From: Promethearchaeota archaeon
GTDB taxonomy: Archaea > Asgardarchaeota > Lokiarchaeia > Sigyniarchaeales > SOKP01
DNA: 35,882 nucleotides
Reading direction: 5' to 3'
Assembly: GCA_016840085.1 (NCBI GenBank)
Contig: JAEOTA010000068.1
Location: 1 to 35,882, forward strand
The position numbers and the translations under genes were made by a program. Position 1 is the first letter of the stretch. Every line of letters starts with the position of its first letter. Below the pieces are notes generated by a model. It searched no databases. It saw only the letters and a list, made by a program, of their open reading frames with translations, and was not told the origin of the DNA. Shown here in pieces: positions 11,745 to 32,746 of this stretch.

Positions 11745-11897
11745 GTGAAAGTTCATACGAAATTTTGGCAAAAATTAGATATTAGTCAAAATAAACAAGT
11801 TGAAATTGAATTTGAAGTAAATTTTTGTCCATATTGTGGAAATTTTGTTTCAAAAATAGATCTAATTTGTAACGAATGTGGAGCGAATTTAAAATAA
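11745..11897 (+). CDS. 50-aa zinc-ribbon microprotein or gene remnant (not in the ORF track)
   Basis: GTG start, VKVHTKFWQKLDISQNKQVEIEFEVNFCPYCGNFVSKIDLICNECGANLK*, with a CxxC-x10-CxxC motif. Confidence 0.5.
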   Translation: MKVHTKFWQKLDISQNKQVEIEFEVNFCPYCGNFVSKIDLICNECGANLK

Positions 11898-11919
11898 TAA
11901 ATATTTGGGATAATGTAAG

Positions 11920-14511: not shown

Positions 14512-17049
14512 CTATTTATTTATTTGAAGATCTACATCGCAATTATAACATTTAATCGATTCACCACTAATATATTTTTGAACTAATTCATGTGAAATGT
14601 AGGAATAACAATATGGGCAGATATTTGAGAGTATTGATACTCTCAAGTCGTAAAATTTATCCTCTGTAGCTATTACATTACTTTGGATTAATTGTTGTCT
14701 TATTTTATCACCCATTTCCGCAAGAAAGGCAGTTATTTGCTCTTCATCATTTCCAGAAACCTCTACTTTTAGAGTCCGATTTTCACCATCCAATAGGACA
14801 TATGTGATGACTTGGTTTTTTTTAACCTTGGTAATTCCAAAATACCAAGCTTCTCCAAGTCTATCTTCCTCAGAAAAATCTTTAAAGATTAATTTTATAT
14901 CAAATTTGCCTAGGACTGATATAACAGAAGAAAAGACCGAAGAGCTATATGTATTATCCACAATTGGAAATATCCTTTTATCTTGATGTGTAAGCCTGCG
15001 TCGAAGACTTTTAACTCTAGCTAAATTTGCGTCAGTTTCAGTAAAGAATATTGGACATGTAATTGAAACCATTTTAGGTTCCATGGGTATGGCTCTTGGT
15101 TTATCTTTCACATTATAAAAGCTAACTGTAGCATTGACAGGGCTTTCCATACAATTAATCGGTTCTAAATAAAGAGAGACTGCCTTTTTTTCTTTTGCTC
15201 CCAATTTAGCAATTAATATACTATCTCCTTTCCGTTCGTAATCAGGTTCGTGTAAGATCCACTTTAATGCTTTTGGAATGTCAAATGTAATTTTAAAATT
15301 GGTTAATGAGTATTGTGTATTATTTTTTACTCCGACTTTAAATCTAATTTGCCCACCAATAAATTCATATTCTCTCATAATTGTTACAAGTTTTTTTGCC
15401 TGCTCTTCCTTTATTATTGGTGGAATTTCATGTGATATTATGTCATCAACTTTAATTTTTGCCTTAGCTGTTATTGGAGTTATACCAATCAATTTATCCA
15501 TTTTCTCTTGTAGGTCTGATTGAAATGCTCTAGCTTCAATTATTCTTTCTTGTAATTTTTCTACAATATCTTGAAATTCGTTATATTTCAATGCTTTTTC
15601 TTTTGCTTGAGAATATCTGAAAATAATATCATTGACAAGTTTTATTGTTCCTGTAAGGTCTTTTTTTTGAAAATTATGGGCATACTTTAGATCTTTGTCA
15701 GAATCTAGATATGTTTTTTCGATCTCGAGCCGCTTAATATTCATTTGAATTGAACTTATGCTATTTTTAAGATCACTGTAAGATTTACTTACTTTTTTAG
15801 TTTTTATTAACTCCATAGCTAATTGTATGTTATCGATGGCTGAATGCCATTCATCTTTTGCTTCTTGTAGGTTCCATTTTTTATATCTTTCTTTTCCTTT
15901 TACCGTGTGAACTCTAGCATTTTCTATGTAGGCATTATATATGCTTTCTATGAGAATTTTTAAGTTGTGTTTAATTCTCTCCTTTTCTATAGCTTTTTTC
16001 AACAATTCTTCATAGTAGGAAATGGCTTCCTTCCATTTTTCAATAGCAACATCAAATAATTTTTTTGAGTAATTTTTTTTACCTTCATTCACCGAATCTC
16101 TTGCTCTTCTTAAAAGAAGTTCAAATTCATTTAGTAGAAGTTCTTCTTCTTGTGTTTTGATACTAATATGGTACTCTTTTTTACTTGATAAAAGAAAATT
16201 GAAAAGAATTATAAAGGAAATAGCACTAATTGAGCCCAAAATACTGGATATACCCAAAAACATTCCATTAATTAAGAGAATTAATATTAAAAATATAGCT
16301 TCAAATCTTTCGAAAAAATCAATAATCTTTGTTGATAATTTTCTTGGAATTTGTATCTCCTTAGACTTTCTTGTTGGTACTAGGCGGCTTTCTTGATGCT
16401 TGACTTGATCGAAATTATATTCAAGCCTAAGAAGTACTAAAGCAATGGCATAAATCGATCCTAAAGCTACCCAGACACCGAAAATGATTTGCCACGTAAG
16501 CCATCCATTAAAATATGTAGATTCTCCTATAATACATAGATGGATACAGATTCCAAGCCAAAATGGGTAGAATAATATCAATGATTTTATTACCCTTCTA
16601 TAACGTTCAAAATTAACTGTTCCAAAATAATATATTACAATAGACCATGAATAAATTCCAAAAAAATATGATGAAAAGGTATTAGTGATAATAAGGTATT
16701 CATCAGTTAATGTTGGCCATTCATATATCCATACATCCCATTCAATTTCAAGATCTATTAAATGAGATATTGCTGTCCCTATATCAATCCACCATAAAAT
16801 AAAGAATGTTAATATAGGTAGAAATAAGCTAATTTTTCTTAATTTTTTTATAATTAGAATTCCTACACATGATAATATAATATCTATGAGAATGGTCCAT
16901 GCAATTATTGATTGGTAAATAGGAAAGCCCCAAGGAGTAAGCTTTGGTTCTGGAAATCTGAAAACTATAGTTAAAACCGTGCCTATTATTGAAACAATTG
17001 TTATTAAGGCAAGAAATATTATTATTCTAATTTTTGTTCTATATAACAT
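14512..17049 (-). CDS. Multi-pass membrane protein with helical TPR-like region, adaptin-appendage-like domain and terminal Zn ribbon
   Basis: About 8 hydrophobic segments in aa 1-290, then helical repeats (AIEKWKEAISYYEE). A beta-rich REYEFIGGQIRFKVGVKN...VSLYLEP...VSITCP segment is followed by an alpha/beta segment and CPYC...CYNC. Confidence 0.7.
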   Translation of the reverse strand: MLYRTKIRIIIFLALITIVSIIGTVLTIVFRFPEPKLTPWGFPIYQSIIAWTILIDIILSCVGILIIKKLRKISLFLPILTFFILWWIDIGTAISHLIDLEIEWDVWIYEWPTLTDEYLIITNTFSSYFFGIYSWSIVIYYFGTVNFERYRRVIKSLILFYPFWLGICIHLCIIGESTYFNGWLTWQIIFGVWVALGSIYAIALVLLRLEYNFDQVKHQESRLVPTRKSKEIQIPRKLSTKIIDFFERFEAIFLILILLINGMFLGISSILGSISAISFIILFNFLLSSKKEYHISIKTQEEELLLNEFELLLRRARDSVNEGKKNYSKKLFDVAIEKWKEAISYYEELLKKAIEKERIKHNLKILIESIYNAYIENARVHTVKGKERYKKWNLQEAKDEWHSAIDNIQLAMELIKTKKVSKSYSDLKNSISSIQMNIKRLEIEKTYLDSDKDLKYAHNFQKKDLTGTIKLVNDIIFRYSQAKEKALKYNEFQDIVEKLQERIIEARAFQSDLQEKMDKLIGITPITAKAKIKVDDIISHEIPPIIKEEQAKKLVTIMREYEFIGGQIRFKVGVKNNTQYSLTNFKITFDIPKALKWILHEPDYERKGDSILIAKLGAKEKKAVSLYLEPINCMESPVNATVSFYNVKDKPRAIPMEPKMVSITCPIFFTETDANLARVKSLRRRLTHQDKRIFPIVDNTYSSSVFSSVISVLGKFDIKLIFKDFSEEDRLGEAWYFGITKVKKNQVITYVLLDGENRTLKVEVSGNDEEQITAFLAEMGDKIRQQLIQSNVIATEDKFYDLRVSILSNICPYCYSYISHELVQKYISGESIKCYNCDVDLQINK

Positions 17050-17059
17050 TTTTTAGTCA

Positions 17060-18037
17060 TTATTTTTTAAGTCTCTTTAATTTTTCAAAACACTCTTTAA
17101 TTGTAGAGTCATCCTCATTGAAAATTTGGAAGTAAAGTCTAGAAATCGGATTTGAAGCACAGAAAAAATCATTTTCTTTTGTTGCAATATATTTTAACTC
17201 CTCTTCATCAAGTTCATCAATAAATTTCTCATAAAAAATCAATTTAGCTAATATTATTTGTCTTAATACAGGAAAAGAATAAATTAAAACATCAGTGTCT
17301 TCTATTGTGGCACATCCTCTCTCGTTTATTAAAAGCGACAATGCTTTTGAGCATTGTAAAACATCTTTAAAAGATAATTTCGAACTTAGTTCACAATGAG
17401 TTAAAATTGTGCTTATCGTATTTTCAACTTCATATTCTTCTTCATACCCAAATCTCTCTTCATATTCTTCCAATTCTTTACGAGGAACAAGTTGAATTTC
17501 TTCAGGGAGTTTTTCTAACTCTTTTTTAGTCTTTTCAAAGTTAAATTTTTTACAAAATTTGTGTTCCATCTCTGTCTCTCTTTGAAAATATTCTAAAAAC
17601 CGATCTTTGTTAAATCGAAACCTATTTTCTTCAACCATTTCTAAAAAATCAGTCATATATCTAATTAAATTCTCATCAGAGGTTGAAAAGATCCCATTTT
17701 CAATATTCTCGGAATTTTCATCTAAGAAGCTTCCAAAATCATAATATCCTATGCGCACATGTCTACAAATGCCTTTACATAAGAATTTCTCTGGACAGTT
17801 TACAGCATTAAAAAATTTTCTAGCAACAACAGGTTCTTCGCCATTTATGGATATTGCTGTTCCTTTAAGATTTCCTACCAACTCAAATAACTTTGTCAAA
17901 TCTTTATCTTCAGGAGATTCAAAATTTATTTTATAATATCTGTCTTCTATAAATCCCCCATGTTTTTCTGCTAATCTAATAGCTTCAGGGACATTTTGTC
18001 CGCTTGATTTTGAATTAAATTTAAATTCTATTTTCAT
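17060..18037 (-). CDS. Hypothetical acidic protein with Cys/His cluster
   Basis: GAGGTGG SD-like site, 38 bp after the Mre11-Rad50 stop; contains CPEKFLCKGICRH. Confidence 0.75.
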   Translation of the reverse strand: MKIEFKFNSKSSGQNVPEAIRLAEKHGGFIEDRYYKINFESPEDKDLTKLFELVGNLKGTAISINGEEPVVARKFFNAVNCPEKFLCKGICRHVRIGYYDFGSFLDENSENIENGIFSTSDENLIRYMTDFLEMVEENRFRFNKDRFLEYFQRETEMEHKFCKKFNFEKTKKELEKLPEEIQLVPRKELEEYEERFGYEEEYEVENTISTILTHCELSSKLSFKDVLQCSKALSLLINERGCATIEDTDVLIYSFPVLRQIILAKLIFYEKFIDELDEEELKYIATKENDFFCASNPISRLYFQIFNEDDSTIKECFEKLKRLKK

Positions 18038-18075: not shown

Positions 18076-21000
18076 TTAATTAAAAATTTTTGACTTGCCT
18101 AACTCATCCCATCCAATCATGATTCGATGTGGGAATTGTTCTGCAACATCTTCTAAATGAGTGATGAGAATAATTTTCTTAAACATTGATTTCAATTCTA
18201 AAATTTTTTCTACAAAACGTTGTCGGGCTGATTCATCATCCAATGTTCCAAGATCTCCTTCATCAATAAACAGTGTGTTTGATTTTCGAAATAATGCCCC
18301 TGTCGTATCTGGAATCTCTGCGATATGCTCCATTATTGCAAATCGGATAGCCGCATTAATCTGAGTCTTTTCGCCGCCTGAAAAACTACTTGCTTCTCGG
18401 TCACGTTCACCATCAAAAACATTGATTTCAAATCCAACCCTTTTTCCCTTTAATGGTTTAAATGTAATTTGGTTAAATTTCCCATCAGTAAGATCGCTTA
18501 ATATTTGTGAAGCACTAACTGAGATAGCAGGGAGAATTTGCTCTACCGCAAACTTAGGAACTCCATTAAGATGGAAAATATCTTCTCGTAACAACTTATA
18601 TTTTTCAATGTTATCTGTAATCTCTTGTATTTCTTTTTTTATTCGCTTAATTTTACTCTCTTTTTCTTTTATCTTTTCTATATCTTTAGCAATGAAATTG
18701 ATTTCTACTTTTAATCCTTCTATTTTATTTTCCAATTCTTGGAGTTCTTGTTGTTTTTTCCCATATTTATTAGCAATCTCTAAATATTGTTGATATGAAG
18801 ATTCTAATTTTAATAATTTTTTGTTCAGTTTTCCCAATTCGCTTTCTTTTTGTGTGAGATCTTCTTCGCTTTTTTCAATCATAATGGAGAAATCTTTTAT
18901 TTCATTCAATTTACTTTCTATTCCTTCTCTTTCTTTCTCAGTATCTTCTATTCTCTTGAATCCTTCCTTAATTTTATTTAATTGTTCCTTAAATTCAGAA
19001 ATTACTCCTTTTTGTTTCATATCTTTATTTAATGTTTGAATTTTTTCTGAGAATGTAGAGATCTCAGTAATTTTCTTTTTTTCTATTCCATTATATTGAT
19101 TCATTATTGTGTCTTTATCACTCTTAATCTCATCAGCAATGAAGACTGCTTTAGTAATTTTTTTTTGCTTGGGTTTAATTTCTTCTAATTGTTTATTTGT
19201 TTGACTTTCTAATGAAGTAAATTCTTTAATACGTGTGGTATCATTATATTCTTGTGCCATGGGAATCTCAACGTTCTGGAGTCGATAGAGCCTTTCCGTT
19301 AGCATTCCATTATCTTTTAAAATATTGAACGCATCGTCTTTTGTTATAGTGACATCTAAGCTTTTAAGAGTAACATCCTTCTCATTTATTTGTGTTGATA
19401 AATTTTCTAATTGTTCATTATATTGTTTCTCAGTTTGTTGCACCAAATTCTTATTGCTACTAATTTCAGATTGAAGTAATTCAAGCTCGTGAATCACTTT
19501 TTCAATTTCTTCTTTTTTAATTTGTAATTCCTTTCTTTCTTTTTTCACATCTGGTAGATTTTGTAATTTATTTTGTAGTTTATTATATTCTTCTTGCTGT
19601 TGCTTATATTCTTTCAGCTCTGTTTTATCCTCCTCGATCTTTTCTTTTATCCCTTCGATTGATTTTTGAGTAGTTGTATAATTAAAGGCATCCGTCTGAG
19701 TGGCTTCTGTTTTTTCTTTTAAATCCTTTATAGTATTTGATAATTCAGTTTGTCGCTTTCCTTTCTCTTGGAGTCCTTCATTTATTTCTTGTAACTCTCT
19801 TTCTTTTTGAGGTAGTTCCTCAAGAAATTCCTCTAACCCGATAATCTCTCCTTCAAGAGTGGCTTTCTTACCTGTGAAATCATCAATCGTAGATTTTAAA
19901 TTTTGATATATATTGCTGAATATCTTCAATTTAAATAATTTTACAAGCCTTTGTTGCCTTTTTTCTGTTGTTAGAGTAGAAAAGATCTGAAGTTCTTGTT
20001 GTCGTATGAAAAAAGAAGATGTAAAACCTTCATAATCATACCCAATGATATCTTCCAATTTTTTCTCTTTTTCTGGAACGCTAAGTCCAGAAAATAAGGG
20101 ATCTCCATTATACTTTATTTGTAATTTTGGAGATGTCTGACTCCTCTTTACTGATAAGTTCTTATCTCCAATCAATAATTCTAAGGAGACATATCCACCT
20201 TTGTATAGGATCTCATCTAACGTAAGACCCACATCTTTTCGAGAATTTCTTTTAAATACTGCAAAAGTAATAGCATCTAAAATGGAAGATTTACCTGAAC
20301 CTGTAGGTCCTTTAATAACATATAGATCTTCATCGAAACTTATTTTATTTGGCCCTTTTCCATATTTATTAAAATTTTGCATATCAATCGATTTAATAGA
20401 TAATGAACCTTTTGCGGTAAGATCTACTAGCGATAATTCTCTATCTAGCAATTCTAATCCGATATTTTTTAGATCCTTATAATAGTTATGAGTAGCATAT
20501 TTTTGTTCTAGAAAATCTTTAAATAAGCTTTTGGGATCTAAGTTAACTTCTCTTAATTTTGGACTTTCTTTAAAAGCTTTCTCTATGTAAGTTAGATCAA
20601 CATTATAAGAAGACTTGAAATAGTTATCTAATTGATATTTATCAAGGCTAGTCTCTTTCCCTTGAGGATAGTGTATTTGGATTTTACATACAGCTTCTTT
20701 AATTTTTTCTTTTTCTGGTAAATGGTTTAAGGAATATTCGGTTAGGTCTTCAGCATCATCAGGTATTTCAATCTCATGCTGTAATAATTTTCTACACTCA
20801 ATTTTTCGAAATTCTATATCATTATTTTCTACATCATATACGCAATAAAATTTATCAGAATTTCTCTCTCCCATATCAATTCTATCTATTGAACCAGGAA
20901 TAATTATTCGATCATCATTCCACATGGTTTGCTTTAAATGAATATGTCCAAATATAACGAGATCAAAGTATTCTTTTTGAACCATTCCTTTATTGAAATG

Positions 21001-21681
21001 AAATTCTCCATAAATCATAGATGGATTGTTAGTTTCCCTGATTTTTGCCCCTTCCAAATAATAATGACCTAAGAGAATTCTTTTATCACATTCTTTTAGT
21101 TTATTTTCACAGGTCTGTTTTATAAAGGTTCTAAAGATATGTTGCGTAATTATATAATTATCTTTGTCTTTAAGAAAGTCTTCACTTATTATTCTCTTTT
21201 CCTTAAAGATGTTCACTAATACATCAAAGTGAAGATAGGGTAAAAATATAAATCCAATCTTACTCCCATTAGTCTCTATTACTTTCGATCTTATACTCGT
21301 ATATACCTCAACATTTGAAAAATTAGCTAACTCTTGAATATCCACCCCTCGTTGTGGATTTCTTGTTGAATCATGATTACCTCCTAGAATAATTGTGTTA
21401 ATATTACTCTGATTTAGGGGAAGGAAAATTTTTTCTCGTACTATTTTTCTAATGGTAGGGGAAATACTTTTTCTGTGGTATAGATCTCCTAAGAAAATTA
21501 CAAAATCAGCCTTGTCTTTAATGGCTTCATTTATGATTTTTTCACAGTTATTAATGACATCCAAACTTCTTTCAGAAATATTAAGTTCATAATTTTTCCG
21601 GTAAGGATACGTCTTTCCAAAATGAGTGTCCCCAACAAAATAAATTTTTGTCATATTCTTTTCAACTTTATTTATTTTCAA
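18076..21681 (-). CDS. mre11-rad50: Mre11/SbcD nuclease fused to Rad50/SbcC ATPase; likely start ATG 21654
   Basis: Phosphoesterase motifs GDTHFG, GDLYH, GNHD, LGH, GHIH, PGSIDRIDMGE. From aa ~427: Walker A GPTGSGKSS, Q-loop FIRQQE, coiled coil, signature FSGGE, Walker B FIDEGDLGTLD, H-loop ITH. Confidence 0.95.
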   Translation of the reverse strand: MKINKVEKNMTKIYFVGDTHFGKTYPYRKNYELNISERSLDVINNCEKIINEAIKDKADFVIFLGDLYHRKSISPTIRKIVREKIFLPLNQSNINTIILGGNHDSTRNPQRGVDIQELANFSNVEVYTSIRSKVIETNGSKIGFIFLPYLHFDVLVNIFKEKRIISEDFLKDKDNYIITQHIFRTFIKQTCENKLKECDKRILLGHYYLEGAKIRETNNPSMIYGEFHFNKGMVQKEYFDLVIFGHIHLKQTMWNDDRIIIPGSIDRIDMGERNSDKFYCVYDVENNDIEFRKIECRKLLQHEIEIPDDAEDLTEYSLNHLPEKEKIKEAVCKIQIHYPQGKETSLDKYQLDNYFKSSYNVDLTYIEKAFKESPKLREVNLDPKSLFKDFLEQKYATHNYYKDLKNIGLELLDRELSLVDLTAKGSLSIKSIDMQNFNKYGKGPNKISFDEDLYVIKGPTGSGKSSILDAITFAVFKRNSRKDVGLTLDEILYKGGYVSLELLIGDKNLSVKRSQTSPKLQIKYNGDPLFSGLSVPEKEKKLEDIIGYDYEGFTSSFFIRQQELQIFSTLTTEKRQQRLVKLFKLKIFSNIYQNLKSTIDDFTGKKATLEGEIIGLEEFLEELPQKERELQEINEGLQEKGKRQTELSNTIKDLKEKTEATQTDAFNYTTTQKSIEGIKEKIEEDKTELKEYKQQQEEYNKLQNKLQNLPDVKKERKELQIKKEEIEKVIHELELLQSEISSNKNLVQQTEKQYNEQLENLSTQINEKDVTLKSLDVTITKDDAFNILKDNGMLTERLYRLQNVEIPMAQEYNDTTRIKEFTSLESQTNKQLEEIKPKQKKITKAVFIADEIKSDKDTIMNQYNGIEKKKITEISTFSEKIQTLNKDMKQKGVISEFKEQLNKIKEGFKRIEDTEKEREGIESKLNEIKDFSIMIEKSEEDLTQKESELGKLNKKLLKLESSYQQYLEIANKYGKKQQELQELENKIEGLKVEINFIAKDIEKIKEKESKIKRIKKEIQEITDNIEKYKLLREDIFHLNGVPKFAVEQILPAISVSASQILSDLTDGKFNQITFKPLKGKRVGFEINVFDGERDREASSFSGGEKTQINAAIRFAIMEHIAEIPDTTGALFRKSNTLFIDEGDLGTLDDESARQRFVEKILELKSMFKKIILITHLEDVAEQFPHRIMIGWDELGKSKIFN

Positions 21682-21701: not shown

Positions 21702-23378
21702 TTAGTCATCTTCTAATGTCGTTAAATCTGATTCTTCAATAGCTTTAAGAGTTGCTGAAATTGGTACTGTTATTTCTAATTTTTCCTTTAACTTTACTTC
21801 ATCCTTATAATTTAGTACTTCAACTATAGAAGGTACAGCCACAGCATCCCCTCTTACGAAACATTCCCTTTTTTGAAGTCCAGAAATCACCCCACGCCAT
21901 TTTTTTGCATCCGGTAGAGTTTGTACTACCCGTTTTATATCTTTATCATCAGTCATATGCATTACAAAAGTATTTGCGATTTGGGAATACACTTCTTCAT
22001 CAATTTGAGAGGGTCTCTGGTCAACAAAAGCTAGTGTTAATTGGAATTTTCTTGTTTCTCTAGCTATACTATCAAAGATTGTATGTTGAATAACACTTGG
22101 TTTTAGAAATTTATGTGCTTCTTCAACCACTACGACTAATGGGGGCAATTTGCTTTCATCTTCTTTTTGAGAGTACATAGTATATAATCTTCTCGTAATC
22201 ATGTTTGCCACAAATAGATATAAGTGAGAATTTATGCCATATTTTCCAAAATCGATTACTATTGATTTTCCTTCTAGTAATTTATTAAACATATGTTCTA
22301 AGCTATCTTTTCTTTTACTCTCTCCTCTATCTCTTAAGAATTCATATCGTTCAAATCGAATTATTCTATTTTGTAGTGCATTTAATGTCATACTGTGTAA
22401 CCCATAATCTTCAGCCTGAATATTGTTAATCGCATCCAATAGATTATCATGTGCAAATCCTTCAGTCTGTAATAGCCCCTCGACGCGAATTAGGGCGTTT
22501 ACTGAAGCTTCTCTCAATGTCTGAGCACTTGCGATAATATCTCCCGAAGTGATAGTATCTTTATAAACAAAAAAAGGTTCTGCGCCATCTATTACTTCTT
22601 CTTCCTTCTCTATATCACTAAGCCGATAAATCTGAATTTTATCTAAAAAATAGTAAGCTAATCCTTTTGTCTTATCCGAGCGTGATATTAACCCATATTC
22701 ACCTTGCATGTCAAATAATACTAATTGAGAGACTTGGTGCTTTAAAATGAATAGACATAAAATTTTGTTTAATATTGATTTACCAATTCCTGTTCTTCCA
22801 AACAGACCATAGGGTTTTTCTACTAAAAGTTTAAAATCTATTGGTACTTCATATTTAAATCCTCGAAGGGTTCCTATTACATCTGAGTACTCGGACACTC
22901 TATAGATAAGGTTTATCTCCTCGTCAGTAACTCCTCGTCCTTTTGAAAAGATTGGCGGAATGGTATCAAATCCACGCATTAATTCTTGGTATTCTAATTC
23001 GTCTTTTGGTTTACTCGGTAATACTCGAAGACAGCTTAAATCAGCAAGTCCATAAAATTCTTTTCCTCTTACACCTTCTATTTGTGGTGGCGGTAGCAGA
23101 CCAGTAAAAGGAGTGTTCGCAAACTTTTCAGCTAATTCATTGCTAGGATAATACAATCGTGTAATTAATGTATAATACAGCAATTTATCGGTCTCTATCA
23201 CTAGTGGTTGACCAAGGCGTAAATCATCAGGACGTCTTTGGATCTTCAGAGTGATTACACTACTTGGAGGTCCTGTATCTGCGGAACAAACTTCTCCAAT
23301 TTTATTGGGTTCTTCTATTGTTTCTAATCCTTCTAATTCAATATTTAATTCATTATTTTCTTTATCTGACATTTTCAT
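21702..23378 (-). CDS. herA: HerA-family DNA translocase/helicase
   Basis: N-terminal HAS-barrel-like region, Walker A GRTGIGKS, FDMQGEY, Walker B VVVEEAHKF, arginine-finger motif ARETRKF, DQRPSQID. Confidence 0.93.
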   Translation of the reverse strand: MKMSDKENNELNIELEGLETIEEPNKIGEVCSADTGPPSSVITLKIQRRPDDLRLGQPLVIETDKLLYYTLITRLYYPSNELAEKFANTPFTGLLPPPQIEGVRGKEFYGLADLSCLRVLPSKPKDELEYQELMRGFDTIPPIFSKGRGVTDEEINLIYRVSEYSDVIGTLRGFKYEVPIDFKLLVEKPYGLFGRTGIGKSILNKILCLFILKHQVSQLVLFDMQGEYGLISRSDKTKGLAYYFLDKIQIYRLSDIEKEEEVIDGAEPFFVYKDTITSGDIIASAQTLREASVNALIRVEGLLQTEGFAHDNLLDAINNIQAEDYGLHSMTLNALQNRIIRFERYEFLRDRGESKRKDSLEHMFNKLLEGKSIVIDFGKYGINSHLYLFVANMITRRLYTMYSQKEDESKLPPLVVVVEEAHKFLKPSVIQHTIFDSIARETRKFQLTLAFVDQRPSQIDEEVYSQIANTFVMHMTDDKDIKRVVQTLPDAKKWRGVISGLQKRECFVRGDAVAVPSIVEVLNYKDEVKLKEKLEITVPISATLKAIEESDLTTLEDD

Positions 23379-23400: not shown

Positions 23401-24474
23401 TTATCTTGATATTTGATCTAAAATTTCATGAAAAGAATTAAATTCTCTTCCATCCATATCGACAGCACCATCCAAAATGTCTTCAGATCGTAATCCTAAT
23501 TTTTTGAGCTCTCTTAAGAGTTCTAATTCATAGGACTCTTTAAAATCCCTCACACTTTTTGCCAATTTATGGGCTTCTATCAGACCAATTGGATATCCTG
23601 GTAATAAATGAACCATAGAATATGCTGCAATAGAAGAAAATAATTGTTCCTTGTCTAATATATCATGGTTAATGTCTACTCGAAACCATTTCACTGCTTC
23701 TCTATGTAATTTTGCAAAATGAACATCTCCCCAATAATCGAATTTTGTCTGCTGTTCAATTACCGCTTCAGGAACATATACATAAGTTAAATCATAGAAT
23801 TGTGTATTATAAAATTTTTTCAGACAATAATCATCAGTATATTGATTCTCTAAGAAATGTGTGCTTGTTGATTTAGATACACCAGCAAATAACACATTAT
23901 TCATTCTACAATTAACTAGGATTCGTGTATAAATATCTTCTCGTTTTAATTCTTTAAAAGTGAGTAATGCTCCATCTTTTACAAGAATGCAATTTTTTCG
24001 AGTTTCCGAGATTTTCTCTAATGCTTTATCTTCGAAATAACTCATAATATTCGAAGCAAAGATTTGAGGTTTTCTTTCTTGAAATCTACTTGCAATTTCT
24101 GAGGCATTAGAAAAAATCTGTGGTTGTGAAGCTAAAACATTTTCATTAAAACTTAGTAAACTAAGATTATCATAAATCTTTGGTGGTGATTTAATGCAAT
24201 AATTTATTCTTCCCTTTCTCATTTCAATACAGTATTCTGTTACAGCAATTCTAAAAAGAACAATCCATGTCTCAGCACCTAAAAATGAAAATAAAAAGCA
24301 ATATGAACCGTCAACCGATATTAATGGTAACACTTCTTCCATGTTAGAAGGTAGAGAAAATGTTATTGCTTCAAGTTCAGGTTTCTTACCTTCTTCTCCT
24401 TCGTCTTCCTCATATTCTCCTAACTTCGCTAGTTTTAATAACTCGATAACATTTTGGATGTCTTTATCTTTCAC
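23401..24474 (-). CDS. nurA: NurA-family nuclease (GTG start)
   Basis: ISVDGS, LVKDGAL, AGVSKST and GYPIGLIEAHKLA; 22 bp upstream of herA. Confidence 0.9.
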   Translation of the reverse strand: MKDKDIQNVIELLKLAKLGEYEEDEGEEGKKPELEAITFSLPSNMEEVLPLISVDGSYCFLFSFLGAETWIVLFRIAVTEYCIEMRKGRINYCIKSPPKIYDNLSLLSFNENVLASQPQIFSNASEIASRFQERKPQIFASNIMSYFEDKALEKISETRKNCILVKDGALLTFKELKREDIYTRILVNCRMNNVLFAGVSKSTSTHFLENQYTDDYCLKKFYNTQFYDLTYVYVPEAVIEQQTKFDYWGDVHFAKLHREAVKWFRVDINHDILDKEQLFSSIAAYSMVHLLPGYPIGLIEAHKLAKSVRDFKESYELELLRELKKLGLRSEDILDGAVDMDGREFNSFHEILDQISR

Positions 24475-24568
24475 ATTAAAACCCTTATAACTTGTCTTTT
24501 ATATTTAAATATATAATAGTTTTATACTTAATTGTTAGCAAAAATATCACCCCTTTTTTTACCTCATT

Positions 24569-26848
24569 TTACCTTGGATCGTAAGGCACAATAATATCTT
24601 CCTTAGTTAATTTTGCTAAATTCTGAACAATGTGGAGTGGCAATATTGTTTTTGGCTGTTGAAATAGAGAACTCCAGTCTAAATAACGTAAATCATTAAA
24701 AATTCTCACTATCTGTTCTATGTTCATATTATTATTAATTTGATAGGTAAGATTTAGTCGCGTTGAAGAAGCAGTTCCTATTCTTGGTTTCGACGTGACA
24801 ATTATCGCATCATGTGGATTTCGGATTAACCCAGAATAATTTACTCTGTATCCATATTTTTCTTCACCATAAAATCTATGCAGTCCTCGTTTAATAGCAG
24901 CAATGACTTTAATATCAGATTCTTTTTCCATAATATGTTCTTGAAGTAACCTTTCCTTAGCCAACAGGGCCCCTTTTTGATATTCTTTTCTTTCAGAAGG
25001 ATAGATTGGCCCATCTTTAAAAAGAAAGATAGTATCAATCTTTTTATTATCTTCAATATCATCATATGTAGATGTTGCCAAGTCAAAGAACCAATCACTT
25101 AAAACTTCAGCAATAATTTTCTCTCCTCGATGGGTATCTATTGAGTTTTTGTATAAGATTCTACCAAGATTATCACATACAGCAGCATATGCAGCAGCTT
25201 CTTTTCTTGTTTCTGGATTCCTTGAGACATCAAACCCCATGAAATAATTATTTTGATTTGGGTTTAGACCACCTGCTGGGCTTTTTAAATGCCAGATTGC
25301 TTCACCGCAACCTAAATATCTTCCATACGCTTTGAGAGCGATATTATAATTCGAAAAAGAGAATCCGCCTTTAAGACTAGCACTTAATAATTCGTTATAG
25401 GTTTTCCATTGAATCATTTCACTTTTTACCAAATGCCTTCCTAGACCTCTCTTCGCAGCAAAATATGTTTTCATAAGATTACTTTTTGGCAATAGTACAA
25501 TGGCAATTTGATCTGTTATTTCTTGTCCAAACTTCTGACATATCCGCATATATCTATCAGGATGAATTCTATCAACCGGAAACAAATTACTTAGTTTAAA
25601 TTCTCCTAAATGTAATTTTTTTGTGTGTTTATTCAAGTAATTATGAAATTGTTTCAAGTGTTCAATTTCACTTTCGGGGGCTACATAACTTATTGGAATC
25701 GAACCCTTTACGTCCACAGGTCCATATTGAAACATAGCATTTTTAATATCTGGATCTGACCAAGGTTTATCAGGTCTACATATGCCACCATTACCAAATT
25801 GAAGGATTGGGGCATTAAGATAGATCTGACTACCGAAATTCACACTCTTATCATTAAGATTAAATAATTTCCTTTCAAATACAAGTTCAGTATTGCCTAA
25901 CTTTAAACCATCTCCTAATATTAAATCAAAAAGTTTGAAAGTCTCTTGTATACGGATTTTTGGTGATAAAGATTTTTTTTCTAAAAATACATTATCAGGA
26001 ATAATCGGATCTAATAAATCAATAACAATTTCTAACACCGATGGGGGATAAGGGAGTGGTTTAGTATTTTTCGAAATTTCAAGTAATAAGGTTGGTTTGT
26101 CATTGGGATTTAATGTTACATGATTTCTCTGAAGCCATCTTCTATGAGGTTCGCTTGTTGTCCAATATTTATACACTGAAGTAGGCTCTCCATCTTGTCC
26201 TTCGAATTTATATTCTTGAATAGAAATATCTATGATATCAACAATTTTGGCAGTAAAAGACCTGTATTTTGATACACTTGGATATTTTACTTTCTTTTTT
26301 AATAAATAGATATTTAACGCACTGAAATTATTATTTTTTGCCCAGGTAAGAAATGAGCTCATTTTAAATTTCCATTTGGTAGTAGGATCTAACCAGACAC
26401 CCACCTTCCCATCTTGTAAGACTTCTACCTCTGAGTAGAATGCATTATAAAATGAAAAGAAATCTTCTTTATAAGATTTCTTATTGTGATATTTCTGACC
26501 TTCAGAACGGGCAAATCCAATAGAAAAAGCTTTTTGTTTAATTAGACTGTTAACGAGATGATTAAGAATCGTATTATGTTCTTTAGTATTTAGAATAATA
26601 TTTTGATCTAATAAAATAAATTTATAATTATTGATCTCAAACTTTTTAAGTGGACTTGTTCCATTTTCTACAAAATAGATTTTATCTCCGTATGAGGTAG
26701 TTGGAAAATTATTATTAAAGAGCTTCCATTCAGCTCCCTTTATTATTCGATAATAATCATCGGGAGGTATTGTACTATCGGATGAATATACTTTCACAGG
26801 TAGTTTTCTCAATGGTTCATCTCGGGTGACAAACATATTAATATTCAT
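24569..26848 (-). CDS. ago: Long prokaryotic Argonaute (N-L1-PAZ-L2-MID-PIWI)
   Basis: L1 VGVWLDP; PAZ TSVYKYW...DKPTLL...PYPPSVL; L2 LSPKIRI...LNAPILQFGNG; MID TYFAAK...SEMI...NIALK; PIWI MGFDVSR (D540), RGEKI (E576), FKDGP (D612), IKRGLHRFY, LPLHIVQNL. Confidence 0.93.
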   Translation of the reverse strand: MNINMFVTRDEPLRKLPVKVYSSDSTIPPDDYYRIIKGAEWKLFNNNFPTTSYGDKIYFVENGTSPLKKFEINNYKFILLDQNIILNTKEHNTILNHLVNSLIKQKAFSIGFARSEGQKYHNKKSYKEDFFSFYNAFYSEVEVLQDGKVGVWLDPTTKWKFKMSSFLTWAKNNNFSALNIYLLKKKVKYPSVSKYRSFTAKIVDIIDISIQEYKFEGQDGEPTSVYKYWTTSEPHRRWLQRNHVTLNPNDKPTLLLEISKNTKPLPYPPSVLEIVIDLLDPIIPDNVFLEKKSLSPKIRIQETFKLFDLILGDGLKLGNTELVFERKLFNLNDKSVNFGSQIYLNAPILQFGNGGICRPDKPWSDPDIKNAMFQYGPVDVKGSIPISYVAPESEIEHLKQFHNYLNKHTKKLHLGEFKLSNLFPVDRIHPDRYMRICQKFGQEITDQIAIVLLPKSNLMKTYFAAKRGLGRHLVKSEMIQWKTYNELLSASLKGGFSFSNYNIALKAYGRYLGCGEAIWHLKSPAGGLNPNQNNYFMGFDVSRNPETRKEAAAYAAVCDNLGRILYKNSIDTHRGEKIIAEVLSDWFFDLATSTYDDIEDNKKIDTIFLFKDGPIYPSERKEYQKGALLAKERLLQEHIMEKESDIKVIAAIKRGLHRFYGEEKYGYRVNYSGLIRNPHDAIIVTSKPRIGTASSTRLNLTYQINNNMNIEQIVRIFNDLRYLDWSSLFQQPKTILPLHIVQNLAKLTKEDIIVPYDPR

Positions 26849-26910
26849 GTATATATCACAACAAGGTGTAAAATATTATATTACTCTATGTGACTAATGT
26901 TTCATCTTTC

Positions 26911-26926
26911 ATATATAAGTATTTCC
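26911..26926 (-). promoter_or_regulatory. BRE/TATA candidate for ago
   Basis: The minus strand reads GGAAATACTTATATAT about 65 bp upstream of the ago ATG. Confidence 0.5.
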
Positions 26927-26962
26927 ATTTTTGAAATTTATTCCATTAGAAATTAGTAATCT

Positions 26963-26977
26963 CAAAAAGTTTATATT
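26963..26977 (+). promoter_or_regulatory. BRE/TATA candidate for the ATPase - PIP protein - RM operon
   Basis: CAAAAAG-TTTATATT about 60 bp upstream of ATG 27034. Confidence 0.55.
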
Positions 26978-27033
26978 CTTAAATAACCAATGTTTATAAT
27001 GTAGATTAATTTATTAAAAAATATTATTAATCC

Positions 27034-28158
27034 ATGAATAAAGAAAATAACCATCTTAAAGAGTTAGTAATTACATCTGTGAAAGATGGCATAGAACACG
27101 AGGAAGTTCTAGCTGATGTATCACCTTTTTGGTTTCGATACTTTTTTTATTCTAAGGATCCTCTTGGTGGTCTTAATCCTGAAAATGAATTTATCCCTGA
27201 TTTGATTAAATTATTTGTGAATCGTGAAGCCGAAATTAAAGTTATCGCTGGATATTTTGGAAAAGCAAAAAATCTACCCTATAACCTTCATATTGCTATT
27301 ATCGGTTCTAAAGGTTCTGGAAAACATACAACGTTTAAAATTATAACTAAGTTTATAAGTGAATCGTTTCCAGATATTAAGTGCGAATTTTATAATATAG
27401 AGTTTTCTTTTGATTACAAGGCTAATGAATCTTTGTCACAAAAAGAAGTAGATAGTTTCGATAATCAAAAACTTGATATCAGGATTATTTCATGTTCAGG
27501 AAAAAATAAATATCTTTTTTTGAAAAGAATAAAAGATTACAAAGAAAACACTAAATTAACTTTTTCAATTTGGCATACAAGAGACTATCCATTTGAGAAT
27601 GATATGCTTGTTAATAAAGAGATCTACTTTAATAATTTCACTTATAATGATATAATCGAGATTTTTAAAAGAAGGATGGATAAATTCCTAGAAAATTCTA
27701 AGGATTCACAACACTATTATAATACCACGATTAATGAGTTATTACCAAGAATTGGAAAATCATTTCAAGGTAATCTAAATGTATGCTTTCTCTTTTTTAA
27801 AGAGATCCATCAGCAAACGAGGGTTATGAATTTAAAAGTAATATCACCACAACTTATAGAAAATGTAATACCAAAATATTTAAGTATAAAAAACCAAAAA
27901 ATCACAACCAAAGAGCAAGAAATAATTGACTACTATTTACGATTAGACAACAGAATTTATATTACAACCTCAGATTTAAAAGATGACTTAGATTTTGATA
28001 GAACGGTTGCCTGGAAATATTTAGAAAATTTGACCAGAAAGCATGCGCTTAAGAAAATAAAATACGGAAATCCTTCTCGGTATCAAATCAATGAAATATT
28101 TTTAAGTTTTTATGAAGATAAATTAAGAAAAGACTATATATTCAAAGAAAAAGGTTAA
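27034..28158 (+). CDS. Orc1/Cdc6-like architecture: P-loop ATPase plus C-terminal winged helix, with degenerate Walker B
   Basis: FVNREAEI...IAIIGSKGSGKHT, and wHTH ITTSDLKDDLDFDRTVAWKYLENLTRKHALKK...YQIN. No hhhhDE motif is evident. Confidence 0.75.
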   Translation: MNKENNHLKELVITSVKDGIEHEEVLADVSPFWFRYFFYSKDPLGGLNPENEFIPDLIKLFVNREAEIKVIAGYFGKAKNLPYNLHIAIIGSKGSGKHTTFKIITKFISESFPDIKCEFYNIEFSFDYKANESLSQKEVDSFDNQKLDIRIISCSGKNKYLFLKRIKDYKENTKLTFSIWHTRDYPFENDMLVNKEIYFNNFTYNDIIEIFKRRMDKFLENSKDSQHYYNTTINELLPRIGKSFQGNLNVCFLFFKEIHQQTRVMNLKVISPQLIENVIPKYLSIKNQKITTKEQEIIDYYLRLDNRIYITTSDLKDDLDFDRTVAWKYLENLTRKHALKKIKYGNPSRYQINEIFLSFYEDKLRKDYIFKEKG

Positions 28159-28161
28159 GAC

Positions 28162-28959
28162 ATGCCATCATTAAGAATATATTTTGATGCTGCGGTAAAG
28201 GATACTATGGATATAATTAGACAACAAATTTTAATGGACTCTAATCATTCAGCAATATTTGATAAAAATTCAAATATTCTTCAGGCAGGATTCTACAAGA
28301 ATATATTAGAACTTGTAAATGAAAATTATTATATTTCTGATTATTTTGAAATTGGTGTAAAAAACATACCTACTCTTGAGACTGAATTATCTTATTTTAA
28401 TTATGCTGAGATTCCAAGTTTAAGTGAGAAAAGACAATATCCAATTTTAATAAAAATCATTTTCAACCCCAGAAAAAGAGTATTATGTTTTTATACTAGA
28501 GCTAAGATATCGAATAAATTAAGCGATGATCTTCTTAATAAGCTAAATACGCAATATTATTTTGTCTATAGATATCAACCCCTTTTGTTTCAATATAAAA
28601 GGGATCAGTTAGATGCCCTTGTTAATGCTTTAGGTATAAAAGACTTTACAGCAATTTCCTGTTGGGATGGCGATAACAAAGTAATCATTAAAAATCCAAA
28701 AAAGATAACTGAGACAAAAAAGTATTTGGAAATTGCCAAGGAGCAATCAAGAGGGAATTGGACTCATTTAAAGGTACCCTTTGATGAGTTAAATATAGAA
28801 TTGCGGATAAATAATAAAACACAGAATTTTATTACTTTTGAGAATAAATATATTGATGATACTCACTTAGTTAATGGTGTAGATTTTTTAATTAACAAGA
28901 TTATTGAGGTTGAAGAATTTAGCGGAAAAAAGCAGACGTATATAAATTCCTTTTATTAA
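28162..28959 (+). CDS. Hypothetical protein with C-terminal PIP box
   Basis: Lies 3 bp after the ATPase gene and 4 bp before the RM gene; ends KKQTYINSFY (Q-x-x-I-x-x-F-Y). Confidence 0.75.
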   Translation: MPSLRIYFDAAVKDTMDIIRQQILMDSNHSAIFDKNSNILQAGFYKNILELVNENYYISDYFEIGVKNIPTLETELSYFNYAEIPSLSEKRQYPILIKIIFNPRKRVLCFYTRAKISNKLSDDLLNKLNTQYYFVYRYQPLLFQYKRDQLDALVNALGIKDFTAISCWDGDNKVIIKNPKKITETKKYLEIAKEQSRGNWTHLKVPFDELNIELRINNKTQNFITFENKYIDDTHLVNGVDFLINKIIEVEEFSGKKQTYINSFY

Positions 28960-28963
28960 TGAG

Positions 28964-31900
28964 ATGGGTAAGAAATTTATGGATCTAAATAAAATATCCA
29001 AAGAAATTCTAACATTAATTAGATCTCAAACTAATATCATTAATCCAACTCAAACATTTCGTCAATATGTAGCAAAATGCCAAAGAAAAGGAATACACAA
29101 CGAAGAAAATGTGGTTCAACCTTTCACTATTTCATTTTTGAAGATTTTAAATTATATTAATCAACATAATTTAACAATTGAAGAAGTTCAAAAAGGAAAT
29201 AAGCCGGATTTTCACACGGATATCTTTATTTTAGAATGTAAATCTACAAGATATCAAAGTTTTTCAGAAAAATACGGAAGAGAAGAATCACCTAAAGAAC
29301 AATTGAAAAGATATCTGGAATCACCTGAATTTTCACGAGAATATGGTATTATTTTTTCTTTAGATCGACTGCAGGTATATAAATTAGTTGACGGAGAATT
29401 AAAAATAGTTGAGAGGTTGTCATTTTCCTTAGTTGATTTTTTTGAAAATAGAAGTTCAGATATTGACAAATTTATTTCTAAATTTTACGTAAAACCAATC
29501 ACGATTGATGAAAAGGTTCAGATAATTGCAAATACACAGAGAGAGGAATTAATTCCTATTTATCATAAAAGTTTTAATACTGTGTTAAAATCATTAATAA
29601 AAGAAATTTCTCTTGAATTGGAGACAACTTTTGTTGGATTAGATAATAAAAATGATGATACAAGACTTATAAGAGATAAGATATGCCAAATTAAGAAACA
29701 AATAGATTTAAAAACGACAATTGAAGCTGAGACTGAATATATCTCTCAGACATCTTATATAATATTAGCACGGATTATTTTAACTAAATGTTGGGAAGAT
29801 TTGGAATTAATTGACCCCCCAAATACGTATAATGGTGGGTTCAAGAAATATATCCAGGATTATCATGAAAGAATTGTAGATGTATACAAAAGGGCATTAG
29901 ACTATTCGCAAGAGATTTATTTTTTATTCAATCCAAATAACCCTTATCTACTTTTACCATTATCAGAGGAAATAATTGTTGATATATTATTTCAGGTTTG
30001 TAAATATGATTTTAATACTTTAGATTATGACATTTTAGGGTATATTTATGAAGATTATCTTGATCTGGAACATAGAAGAAAATTTGGTCAGTATTATACT
30101 CCCCCATATATAGTAAACTTAATTTTAGATAGAATTGGATATAAACCACTCCCAAATAAATTATTAGATGGATCCATTTTAGATCCTGCATCCGGTTCTG
30201 GAACTTTTCTGTTAAATACAGTGCGAAGAGTTCTTCAATCTAAACAGGATGGTCGTGATCATGCTTTAGAATATAAGGAAATTATTGAAAATAATCTCTT
30301 TGGCTCAGAGTTAATGCTTTTTCCATACCTCATCTCTGAAATTAATATTCTCATCCAATTTTCTCAAGAATTGAAAAAGATTATTCAGAAGGAAAAAAAA
30401 CTAAATGTCTTTCATGTATTTCCTAATAATTCTTTTAACTTAATAGATAAAAAAATTACTACAAGGTTATTTGGAATTCCTGAAGATGATATTAAAGGAG
30501 ATAAGATTATTGACTCTGCTATTATCAAACGGAAGGAAGATAAATTACGATTTTTACAATATAAAGCTGATTTTGATTATGTTGTAGGCAACCCCCCATA
30601 TGTGGCAAATGATACAAATCCTGACTTATTTCGAGAAATGAGAGAATTATTTACTTTTTGTAATGAGACCTATCATAATAAGATGGATCTCTTTTATTGG
30701 TTCATCATCCTAGGTATTTTAAAATTAAAGCCAAGCGGTAAATTAAGTTATATAACAACTAGGTATTGGTTAGATAAAGGAGAAAAAACAGGAGTAGAGA
30801 CTCTTAAAAAATTTATATTAGATTATTGTTACATTCGGGAAGTTATTGACCTTCGGAATGTAACAGTATTTCTTAGCGCAACTGGACAAGAAAATGTGAT
30901 TTTCTTACTACAACGAAAAGGAGATAAAATAGAGGACCAAAATATCCATATTTTTCGAATTCAACCAAGACCAAGCAAAGGCACATGTCTCTTAAATACC
31001 TGTATTTTTGAACGCGGGTATTGTATTAATGATCAGGAATATTTAGAATGTTTATGCAAGCAGGAATCTCATTGGGATAAATTATTTGATGAAGATGAAC
31101 TTCCACTTTCTAATTATATTCATGCCTTTCAATCTGCAAAAATAACAGCAGATTTAAAACCAGATAGATCTTGGGATATATTTTATCCTGCAAAAGGCAT
31201 AATAAAAGAAATTATGGATTCAATAATAAAAAGTTGTACTCGAACCATCGAAAAAATTGATAGTTTTGGGAATAAATATGTAGAAAAAAATGTTGTAAAA
31301 TACGTAAAAGATTTTTTTATTCTTCGAGTTGGGGTATTGACTACCATTGATGAGGTATTTATTTTATCTCTAGGGCTACTCAAGACTGAAGACGATAAAT
31401 GTTTGCTAAAGATTGAAAGTTCGATTAATCTCAAGAGAAGTGAAAAGCAAAAATTAGCTAATACATATCAAGGAGAGATTGACGACTCTGGTTATGTTTG
31501 GTTAGAACTATCTGAATATGAGCAACATAGATTGATGAATTTATATAAGACACCAAGTGTATATCGTCATGGATTGGATATATCAAAAATAGCTGGTAAA
31601 TTGATATTTTTCGAAGATGAGAAAGCTTATAATGATTGTCCCGTGTTAATTCTATATCTTACTCAATTTAAAAAAGAGATTGTTAAAAAATTAGATGAGT
31701 ATGAAGAACTGACTCCAACAAGACCTAATAAATGGATTACATTAAGACGAAGTGCTAATATCACCTTACCAGATAGAGCTAAACGCCCCCTTTTTGAATA
31801 TTACCGTAAAAGGCCTAAGATCTTTTATAACTACCGTGTAGGAAATAATAATATCTTTGGCTATACTAATAAACATATGGTTGCCGCAACCGATATGTAT

Positions 31901-32746
31901 TTTTTTCATAAATTTGGTGAAAATATAAATACTTATTATATGTTAGCGTATCTAAATTCCAAACTTATGACATTTTATTTTAAAGAACGACCTATAGAAC
32001 TCCAAAGACAAAAATCTAATGTAGAAAATGATATTCCAATATTTCTTCCTAGAAATGAGAATGAAGAAGTATTACAGAAATTAATCATTAGAAAAGAAAG
32101 AACTCTTACTCAAAAATTACAGAAACTGGAGAATCATTATCGAGGTAAAGGCTTTCATTTTGATTTAAGTTATACAAGTGAAGATCAAATTGAGATTGAT
32201 ATTGAGACATTCTTAGAAGGTATAGATTTGCCTACAATTAAAGATATATCTTATAACATTAAAGGGGAACTTGATATATACACAATAGACAGGAGGGATT
32301 TTCCAATTCTAATTTTAGACCAATATAAAATAAGAAAGATTGGTCGGTTTAGTGAAATGGCATCGGGCTCCGATGTTCATTTCCAATTTAAATCTTTGAA
32401 AATCGTGGTTGACCAAAATATTTATGAAAAGATAAAATTAGTTATTGAAAGTTATATTACTTTTACAGACAGTCCAAATTTCGAAAAACTCTTACAGTTA
32501 AAAATTCCTTCAAATAGAGTAATGGATGTTATAAGAATTAAGAAGACACGTCTATTTCAAAAAATATCAGGTCTTAATTCTGAAGAAAAGCTCCAAATAG
32601 AAAATGTTGTCGATAATATTTTATCTGCTCAAAAACTAGAAGAAGTTGAGCCTATCAAATATATTAGCCAAATATTATATTTCAATGACATTTCGTTTAT
32701 AAAAATGATATGCCCAGAATTTAAAGACGAAATATTAGCTTATTGA
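28964..32746 (+). CDS. Type IIG restriction-modification enzyme (nuclease, N6-adenine MTase and target-recognition domain in one chain)
   Basis: KPDF...ILECKS...QLKRYL nuclease motif; GQYYTP, ILDPASGSGTFL and VVGNPPY MTase motifs; C-terminal YMLAYLNSKLMTFYF in a TRD-like region. Confidence 0.9.
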   Translation: MGKKFMDLNKISKEILTLIRSQTNIINPTQTFRQYVAKCQRKGIHNEENVVQPFTISFLKILNYINQHNLTIEEVQKGNKPDFHTDIFILECKSTRYQSFSEKYGREESPKEQLKRYLESPEFSREYGIIFSLDRLQVYKLVDGELKIVERLSFSLVDFFENRSSDIDKFISKFYVKPITIDEKVQIIANTQREELIPIYHKSFNTVLKSLIKEISLELETTFVGLDNKNDDTRLIRDKICQIKKQIDLKTTIEAETEYISQTSYIILARIILTKCWEDLELIDPPNTYNGGFKKYIQDYHERIVDVYKRALDYSQEIYFLFNPNNPYLLLPLSEEIIVDILFQVCKYDFNTLDYDILGYIYEDYLDLEHRRKFGQYYTPPYIVNLILDRIGYKPLPNKLLDGSILDPASGSGTFLLNTVRRVLQSKQDGRDHALEYKEIIENNLFGSELMLFPYLISEINILIQFSQELKKIIQKEKKLNVFHVFPNNSFNLIDKKITTRLFGIPEDDIKGDKIIDSAIIKRKEDKLRFLQYKADFDYVVGNPPYVANDTNPDLFREMRELFTFCNETYHNKMDLFYWFIILGILKLKPSGKLSYITTRYWLDKGEKTGVETLKKFILDYCYIREVIDLRNVTVFLSATGQENVIFLLQRKGDKIEDQNIHIFRIQPRPSKGTCLLNTCIFERGYCINDQEYLECLCKQESHWDKLFDEDELPLSNYIHAFQSAKITADLKPDRSWDIFYPAKGIIKEIMDSIIKSCTRTIEKIDSFGNKYVEKNVVKYVKDFFILRVGVLTTIDEVFILSLGLLKTEDDKCLLKIESSINLKRSEKQKLANTYQGEIDDSGYVWLELSEYEQHRLMNLYKTPSVYRHGLDISKIAGKLIFFEDEKAYNDCPVLILYLTQFKKEIVKKLDEYEELTPTRPNKWITLRRSANITLPDRAKRPLFEYYRKRPKIFYNYRVGNNNIFGYTNKHMVAATDMYFFHKFGENINTYYMLAYLNSKLMTFYFKERPIELQRQKSNVENDIPIFLPRNENEEVLQKLIIRKERTLTQKLQKLENHYRGKGFHFDLSYTSEDQIEIDIETFLEGIDLPTIKDISYNIKGELDIYTIDRRDFPILILDQYKIRKIGRFSEMASGSDVHFQFKSLKIVVDQNIYEKIKLVIESYITFTDSPNFEKLLQLKIPSNRVMDVIRIKKTRLFQKISGLNSEEKLQIENVVDNILSAQKLEEVEPIKYISQILYFNDISFIKMICPEFKDEILAY

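Follow-up and report, generated by a model that had tools for sequence, protein, structure and literature searches.

The DNA considered here is a stretch of 35,882 nucleotides from a Promethearchaeota archaeon (assembly GCA_016840085.1, contig JAEOTA010000068.1, positions 1 to 35,882; contig C64 in our numbering of the 4.68-Mb host genome), referred to below as the window. It carries a defence island whose two arms diverge from a spacer of 185 bp (26849-27033) with a GC content of about 18%, calculated with nine flanking bases on each side. The minus arm consists, in this order, of the genes for an Argonaute protein (ago, 759 aa), a NurA-like nuclease (357 aa), HerA (558 aa) and an Mre11::Rad50 fusion (1201 aa), and then of two unknown genes; the plus arm consists of the genes for an AAA protein with a winged helix-turn-helix (wHTH) domain (374 aa), a protein of 265 aa, a type IIG restriction-modification (R-M) enzyme (1260 aa) and a tetratricopeptide-repeat protein. 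A preliminary description of this locus had read its layout correctly: the reading frames at 24569-26848 (minus) and from 27034 (plus) do enclose a divergent region of 185 bp, the first gene of the plus arm does encode a C-terminal wHTH, and the proposed contents of the arms are recovered by family searches (Piwi, HerA, the Mre11-Rad50 fusion, the IIG enzyme) or through homologs (NurA). The conserved neighbor of the Ago arm is the two-gene unit that heads the plus arm, and not the IIG gene behind it. The features on which the argument depends are the following.

24569 to 26848, minus strand: long prokaryotic Argonaute (pAgo), 759 aa, with the tetrad D540-E576-D612-Q742 (DEDQ); Pfam Piwi, E 3.9e-10
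26888 to 26901, plus strand: left operator candidate ATGTGACTAATGTT, which lies a short way downstream of the TATA box of the ago arm and covers the predicted ago start site
26926 to 26911, minus strand: candidate B recognition element (BRE) and TATA box of the ago arm, GGAAATACTTATATAT, a pattern match; its TATA core ATATATAA is kept in 9 aligned spacers
26963 to 26977, plus strand: candidate BRE and TATA box of the regulator arm, CAAAAAGTTTATATT, a pattern match kept in the close clade
26990 to 27003, plus strand: right operator candidate ATGTTTATAATGTA, covering the point at which transcription of the AAA-wHTH gene is predicted to start
27034 to 28158, plus strand: Cdc6/Orc1-like AAA and winged-helix protein, 374 aa, a predicted repressor (weak TIGR02928 match, Atlas neighbours, conserved motifs)
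28162 to 28959, plus strand: RdgC/RexA-fold protein, 265 aa, a predicted sensor or co-regulator (fold match and PCNA-interacting peptide, or PIP, box)
28964 to 32746, plus strand: type IIG R-M enzyme, 1260 aa, exchangeable cargo (Pfam Eco57I, N6_Mtase and TaqI_C; PADLOC REase_MTase_IIG, 6.5e-22)

Of 400 Asgard genomes, 14 were found to contain the AAA-wHTH gene and 12 the 265-aa gene, and 23 metagenome loci can be added to these. Where the facing side is visible (28 distinct loci), the pair faces a pAgo in 17 cases, namely nine Agos of the window clade, four distant Piwi proteins and four short pAgos with a nuclease-APAZ protein; four more loci face a nurA-herA cassette without an Ago, headed by a NERD-helicase, an NYN nuclease or nurA itself. 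Altogether, a nurA-herA cassette stands on the facing arm in 12 of the 28. The same gene order recurs at 23-35% identity in a distant metagenome locus (L128), and the facing gene switches several times along the tree of the AAA proteins. Viewed from the side of the Ago, whose homologs carry the names Promethearchaeota, Hodarchaeota and Heimdallarchaeota, three of 12 close loci face other genes; in two of these, the place opposite the Ago is taken by a Csa3/CARF-like regulator, from which this position can be recognized as a regulator slot. A Csa3/HFX_2341-like regulator in place of the AAA pair, opposite the same Ago clade, is found at L032:5474-6214 and L033:822-1634. At L113:5930-6607, the RdgC-like gene is inverted relative to its AAA gene, and the Ago of that locus is cut to 675 aa; NYN and PD-(D/E)XK genes come next, an arrangement also seen in L131. 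A literature search of incomplete coverage found no paper on the AAA-wHTH/265-aa pair, which is apparently an undescribed regulator.

The preliminary description had assigned the role of partner to the IIG enzyme: restriction breaks would be resected into guides, and methylation would give Ago its means of discriminating self from non-self. The enzyme itself is a regular type IIG protein, with nuclease, N6-methyltransferase and specificity domains in one chain, the Eco57I/TaqI_C architecture with nothing unusual found, and intact motifs (PD-x-ECK at 81, DPASGSG at 407, NPPY at 543). The idea that the two arms form one Ago system is, however, not supported by the comparison of genomes, in which the arms occur independently, an outcome that the preliminary description itself had named as a refutation. 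Full-length IIG orthologs were found in only two further genomes of the 400, G236 (70%) and G252 (67-77%), and in these (89% and 84% complete) no Ago, AAA or 265-aa gene was detected either near the ortholog or genome-wide. The 99 other matches at E ≤ 1e-40 are, apart from these two genomes, partial matches to a widespread methyltransferase of about 650 aa and were rejected as orthologs. Conversely, G184 possesses the whole Ago-resection arm but merely a relic of the window IIG 5' end (42 of 47 bp; L013:15793-15840; score 69 versus a shuffle maximum of 40) right behind its RdgC-like gene; a window-type IIG therefore once sat there and was later lost. Such relics were sought behind the RdgC-like gene in 11 loci and detected in G184 only; an apparent IIG similarity at G182 and L129 was not significant.

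The slot behind the pair holds a IIG in three of the 11 pAgo-facing loci in which it is visible, and these enzymes are mutually unrelated (30 and 46 bits against that of the window); when loci with an intact Ago are considered, the count is 2 of 10, each with an unrelated enzyme. The remaining case, G182, has its unrelated IIG opposite an Ago cut to 149 aa, without nurA or herA. Across the relatives, the slot contains IIGs, type I R-M systems, BREX, DarT, OLD, an ABC-type ATPase, or nothing. Methylation systems do occur within about 20 kb in five of the seven intact-Ago loci whose wide context is visible; examples are BREX in G184 and a IIG/DrmMI-like gene in G161. R-M systems near Ago islands are to be expected, since they are present in 72.8% of archaeal genomes, and R-M cargo is just as common at loci without an Ago opposite the regulator (G185, L116, L114). 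The IIG gene is thus swappable cargo and no required partner of Ago. In the window genome, it is probably co-transcribed and co-induced with the regulator arm: the gap to the upstream 265-aa gene measures only 4 bp, and that between the AAA-wHTH and 265-aa genes 3 bp.

Co-regulation of the two arms had also been proposed, and this proposal survives in part. The back-to-back BRE/TATA candidates cited for it (26911-26926, minus; 26963-26977, plus) are present, though no more than chance gives. TATA patterns on both strands are found in 435 of the 499 divergent spacers of the host genome (87%), BRE and TATA together on both strands in 107, and a BRE-TATA pair arises in 10% of shuffles of the window spacer. 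Because any divergent gene pair needs two promoters and these patterns are so common, the candidates are no proof of co-regulation, and they were rejected as a sign of it. A sigma-70 scan yielded no excess of matches, and the sigma-70 model does not apply to archaeal promoters. What does argue for co-regulation is the 4-bp coupling of the IIG gene and a conserved motif over both predicted start sites.

This motif, ATGT-n5-ATGT, which the preliminary description had not mentioned, is present twice in the aligned spacers, in the same orientation and about 100-116 bp apart. In the window, the copies lie at 26888-26900 and 26990-27002; each starts shortly downstream of a TATA box, after 10 and 12 bases respectively, a distance at which transcription start sites are expected in archaeal promoters; the start sites referred to here are predicted from this TATA spacing. 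Shuffles yield two or more copies in the spacer with P = 2e-4, and a matrix trained on other loci places the window spacer first among the 499 divergent spacers (12.6 bits versus 7.5 bits for the second-best site). Of 18 spacers outside the training set, that of the window among them, 14 have two strong sites, and the motif is kept in the GC-richer spacers (28-42% GC) of distant members. It is missing at all three close Ago loci that have another gene in place of the AAA gene, including the locus of a 69%-identical Ago that faces a Csa3-like regulator, and from the spacer of G162, in which the recognition helix reads EHSVAW in place of DRTVAW; the motif therefore follows the wHTH and not Ago. 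Over the whole window, the pattern occurs twice versus 0.83 times expected, a number that is not significant alone, so that the signal consists of position and conservation. The sole other non-overlapping close pair in the genome (C46) lies inside a coding sequence, at Cys codons. The motif is unlikely to represent a core-promoter element, since its copies share an orientation while transcription diverges, and since it is unique among the divergent spacers of the genome.

The AAA-wHTH protein retains a Walker A motif (GSKGSGKHT), a C-terminal wHTH and an invariant AWxYLE helix. The acidic pair of Walker B is lost in its clade; the corresponding position reads DIRIISCSG in the window protein, and IIFDE is kept only in a distant member. 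Its match to TIGR02928 (E 3.4e-5) reaches 22.9 bits versus a cut-off of 181.3, and its Atlas neighbours are AAA/HTH regulators. Judged by these motifs and scores, it is a Cdc6-like protein with a degenerate Walker B, and predictably a degenerate ATPase, that stands outside the Orc1/Cdc6 family. The structural model of the 265-aa protein (pLDDT 75) best matches RdgC (PDB 2owl; Z 11.4, rmsd 5.3, 220 aligned residues; Foldseek E 3.7e-6), followed by Iml3 and CENP-N and, lower, RexA. The predicted structure thus has the RdgC fold at about 10% identity; a Pfam search returned no RdgC (PF04381) match at E 0.01. Homologs of RdgC form ring dimers that bind DNA non-specifically, and RexA has the same fold (PMC11077077). 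The protein ends in a PIP box (QTYINSFY, 28933-28956); a PIP-like motif is found in 26 of its 27 homologs versus 77 of 3581 open reading frames of the genome (2%), and the host genome contains a PCNA gene. Prediction of a complex of the two proteins gave 0.50 versus 0.00 for the best control, with runs that share at least 70% of contacts and a partner pLDDT of at least 79. This lends weak support to an interaction. Of the pairs used for comparison, 58 of 80 solved ones attain the mark, as do 2 of 110 mismatched ones; with a value of 0.60 or lower, it is attained by only seven of the 80 solved pairs and by both mismatches.

The remainder of the minus arm consists of the following features.

23401 to 24474, minus strand: NurA-like nuclease, 357 aa (Pfam NurA E 0.014, below the cut-off; assigned through homologs)
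21702 to 23378, minus strand: HerA helicase/translocase, 558 aa (Pfam DUF87 6e-16, PADLOC HerA 7e-36; Walker A and B visible)
18076 to 21681, minus strand: Mre11-Rad50 fusion, about 1190-1201 aa (Metallophos and AAA_23), an accessory paralog
14512 to 18037, minus strand: two unknown genes, 325 and 845 aa, at the end of the arm; homologs at 41-43% flank the C8 cassette

The structural model of the Ago protein matches CpAgo and CbAgo over the whole length (Foldseek E 1e-30, TM about 0.6), and hence shows the N-PAZ-MID-PIWI architecture of long pAgos. The positions of its tetrad were read from the alignment; the last residue, Q742, is shared by all of the 18 closest full-length sequences, and a wider clade (P0026-P0083) frequently has it too. 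Sequence searches of the PDB with the Ago and NurA alignments found nothing, and no paper on DEDQ pAgos, or on a pAgo with NurA/HerA/Mre11/Rad50, was found in the literature covered. Eight of ten aligned homologs of the NurA-like protein match Pfam NurA (best 1.5e-12), and D55 and D167-G168 of the DG/DG motifs are invariant. By sequence, all four activities of a HerA-NurA-Mre11-Rad50 operon are co-encoded with their catalytic motifs; no CxxC of a Rad50 zinc hook was found in the fusion. Two more nurA-herA-mre11-rad50 cassettes exist in the genome (C8:31323-39992, C6:30836-39428), which makes that of the window an accessory copy. The C8 cassette is of the fusion type and comes with homologs of the 325- and 845-aa genes, neither of which matched anything in Pfam, PADLOC or NCBIfam; the C6 cassette stands behind a UvrD gene.

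Several side observations concern this arm and its surroundings. The ago-nurA gap of 94 bp (24475-24568) contains AT-rich, TATA-like stretches, and an internal promoter is possible there. In G184 (L014:3017-7183), an unassigned 1388-aa gene lies between ago and nurA, and BREX stands behind rad50. Further neighbours that received no assignment encode proteins of 730, 700 and 352 aa. Short, near-identical ago fragments (80-98% over 29-54 aa) at C71:41981-42231, a piece with stops, and C84:2275-2406 are remnants or assembly duplicates. The left edge of the island (window 9725-13201) carries genes for an extra transcription factor B (TFB), a CoiA-like nuclease and an Mrr-type nuclease.

Taken as a whole, the best explanation of these data, to which we assign a fair probability, is that a modular Asgard defence island is controlled from the spacer, with the pair acting as an island regulator in the manner of CapH/CapP and its wHTH controlling both arms. 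The fixed part of the island is the two-gene unit, and the facing operon and the cargo behind the pair are both interchangeable; the facing operon may start with a long pAgo, a short pAgo with nuclease-APAZ, a NERD-helicase or an NYN nuclease, often continued by nurA-herA-mre11-rad50. The wHTH would probably bind both motifs and repress both arms, its own gene included. Considerably more tentative is the suggestion that the RdgC-fold partner, positioned on PCNA or encircling DNA, might sense stalled or foreign replication and lift the repression. Equally tentative is the larger picture that combines these parts into a replication-coupled defence switch of the Asgard archaea's own: a PCNA-tethered sensor with the fold of RdgC/RexA and of kinetochore CENP-L/N might act on a disarmed Cdc6-like wHTH repressor, and a bidirectional operator would then induce the DEDQ Ago, its private resection machine and the cargo. 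By analogy with bacterial RecBCD/AddAB and CbAgo, the accessory resection enzymes probably turn breaks, however these arise, into DNA guides for the pAgo; in the window genome, restriction might contribute some of the breaks, though no genetic tie links it to Ago.

A number of points weigh against this explanation. L124, L106, G163 and G276 have the AAA gene but lack the motif, and L114 has a single site. The seed pattern of the motif was first spotted in an alignment that included the window, so the ranking of its spacer is not fully independent; moreover, the loci are kin and many of their contigs are short. With respect to the effector, the DEDQ tetrad, though conserved throughout its clade, falls outside the published definition of slicing long-A pAgos (DEDX, with X = D, H or K), so that this Ago may or may not slice.

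Three other explanations must be considered. That a dedicated restriction-primed Argonaute is at work, whose IIG cuts unmethylated invader DNA, whose NurA-HerA-Mre11-Rad50 enzymes make the guides, and for which methylation is the mark of self, we regard as quite improbable. The intact IIG motifs and the coupling of the gene to the regulator arm would suit it, as would the three independent IIGs, two type I systems and one BREX in the same slot of relatives, and the methylation systems near five of the seven intact Agos; furthermore, CbAgo takes up guides from engineered breaks, and CRISPR acquisition is primed by restriction cleavage. These points are offset by the lack of any IIG ortholog beside an Ago elsewhere, by the two IIGs in ten visible intact-Ago slots, and by loss in both directions, G184 having kept Ago and lost the IIG while G182 has a IIG and a truncated Ago. 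The commonness of R-M cargo opposite non-Ago arms and in archaeal genomes at large also detracts from it.

The two remaining explanations concern the pair itself, and we hold both to be unlikely. The pair might serve an integrated mobile element as its module for replication or maintenance, with a Cdc6-like initiator on iteron-like repeats of an AT-rich origin, a PIP protein that recruits the clamp, and defence genes that hitch-hike. The weak Orc1/Cdc6 match, the direct repeats next to the gene in a spacer of 82% AT, the PIP box and the patchy spread (14 of 400 Asgard genomes) are in keeping with such a module. Yet most members have lost Walker B, and instead of an array there are only two short repeat pairs, which lie over the two predicted start sites. 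Moreover, what is conserved next to the gene pair is a divergent defence operon, and no integrase, primase or replicative helicase. Alternatively, the pair might itself be a defence or accessory effector, such as a RexA-like fork sensor that works together with either Ago or the resection enzymes; the motif would then serve autoregulation only. The fold is that of lambda RexA, a phage-exclusion sensor, and the PIP box suggests action at forks over action at promoters; however, the motif covers both promoters and not just that of the pair, the facing genes can be exchanged for one another, and other Ago loci have a Csa3-like regulator in this position.

The favored explanation, an island regulator acting from the shared spacer, has its closest parallels in CapH/CapP, CapW/BrxR and CapK/CapS (bioRxiv 10.1101/2022.04.27.489752; PMC11662680; PMC13373217), which are likewise one- or two-gene regulators upstream of interchangeable defence operons. 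The two genes of CapH/CapP lie on the opposite strand and share the promoter region, as the window pair does, and their HTH protein binds a conserved promoter site, as predicted for the wHTH here. The pair differs in its components, an AAA-wHTH protein and an RdgC-fold PIP protein, and in its archaeal TATA promoters, and repression by it is a prediction. No peptidase, WYL or kinase domain was detected in the two proteins, and they thus lack the HTH plus IrrE-like metallopeptidase combination that defines CapH/CapP. By analogy, the pair would work like CapH/CapP without being a member, a known design built from unrelated components. The 265-aa protein shares its fold with RdgC, lambda RexA and Iml3-CENP-L-N (PMC11077077; PDB 2owl, 2owy, 8twq, 4it3), and differs from RdgC and RexA by the added PIP box and by an AAA-wHTH partner instead of RexB.

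Guides of CbAgo arise at double-strand breaks via RecBCD/AddAB (bioRxiv 10.1101/2020.03.01.971358), and the window protein is likewise a long pAgo that is plausibly loaded from processed breaks. Unlike CbAgo, it is co-encoded with an accessory archaeal resection cassette and has a tetrad that ends in Q. The cassette resembles the archaeal HerA-NurA/Mre11-Rad50 operon (PMC13748450) in possessing all four activities with recognisable motifs; it differs in that Mre11 and Rad50 are fused and lack a zinc hook, and in being one of three paralogous cassettes, placed behind a pAgo. The priming of CRISPR adaptation by restriction cleavage (Maguin et al. 2022, as cited in PMC12931967) offers a conceptual parallel only, the IIG and pAgo of the window having no conserved genetic link.

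In our view, it would be wrong to present the IIG enzyme as a component of an Argonaute system. Attention is also drawn here to a large clade of pAgos whose DEDQ tetrad is absent from the published DEDX variants. How pAgos obtain guides without RecBCD/AddAB is an open question (PMC12094033), and the island bears on it as well as on the regulation of archaeal defence islands. It provides a candidate regulator whose predicted binding site is defined, together with a possible sensor through which the induction of defence would be linked to the replication clamp.

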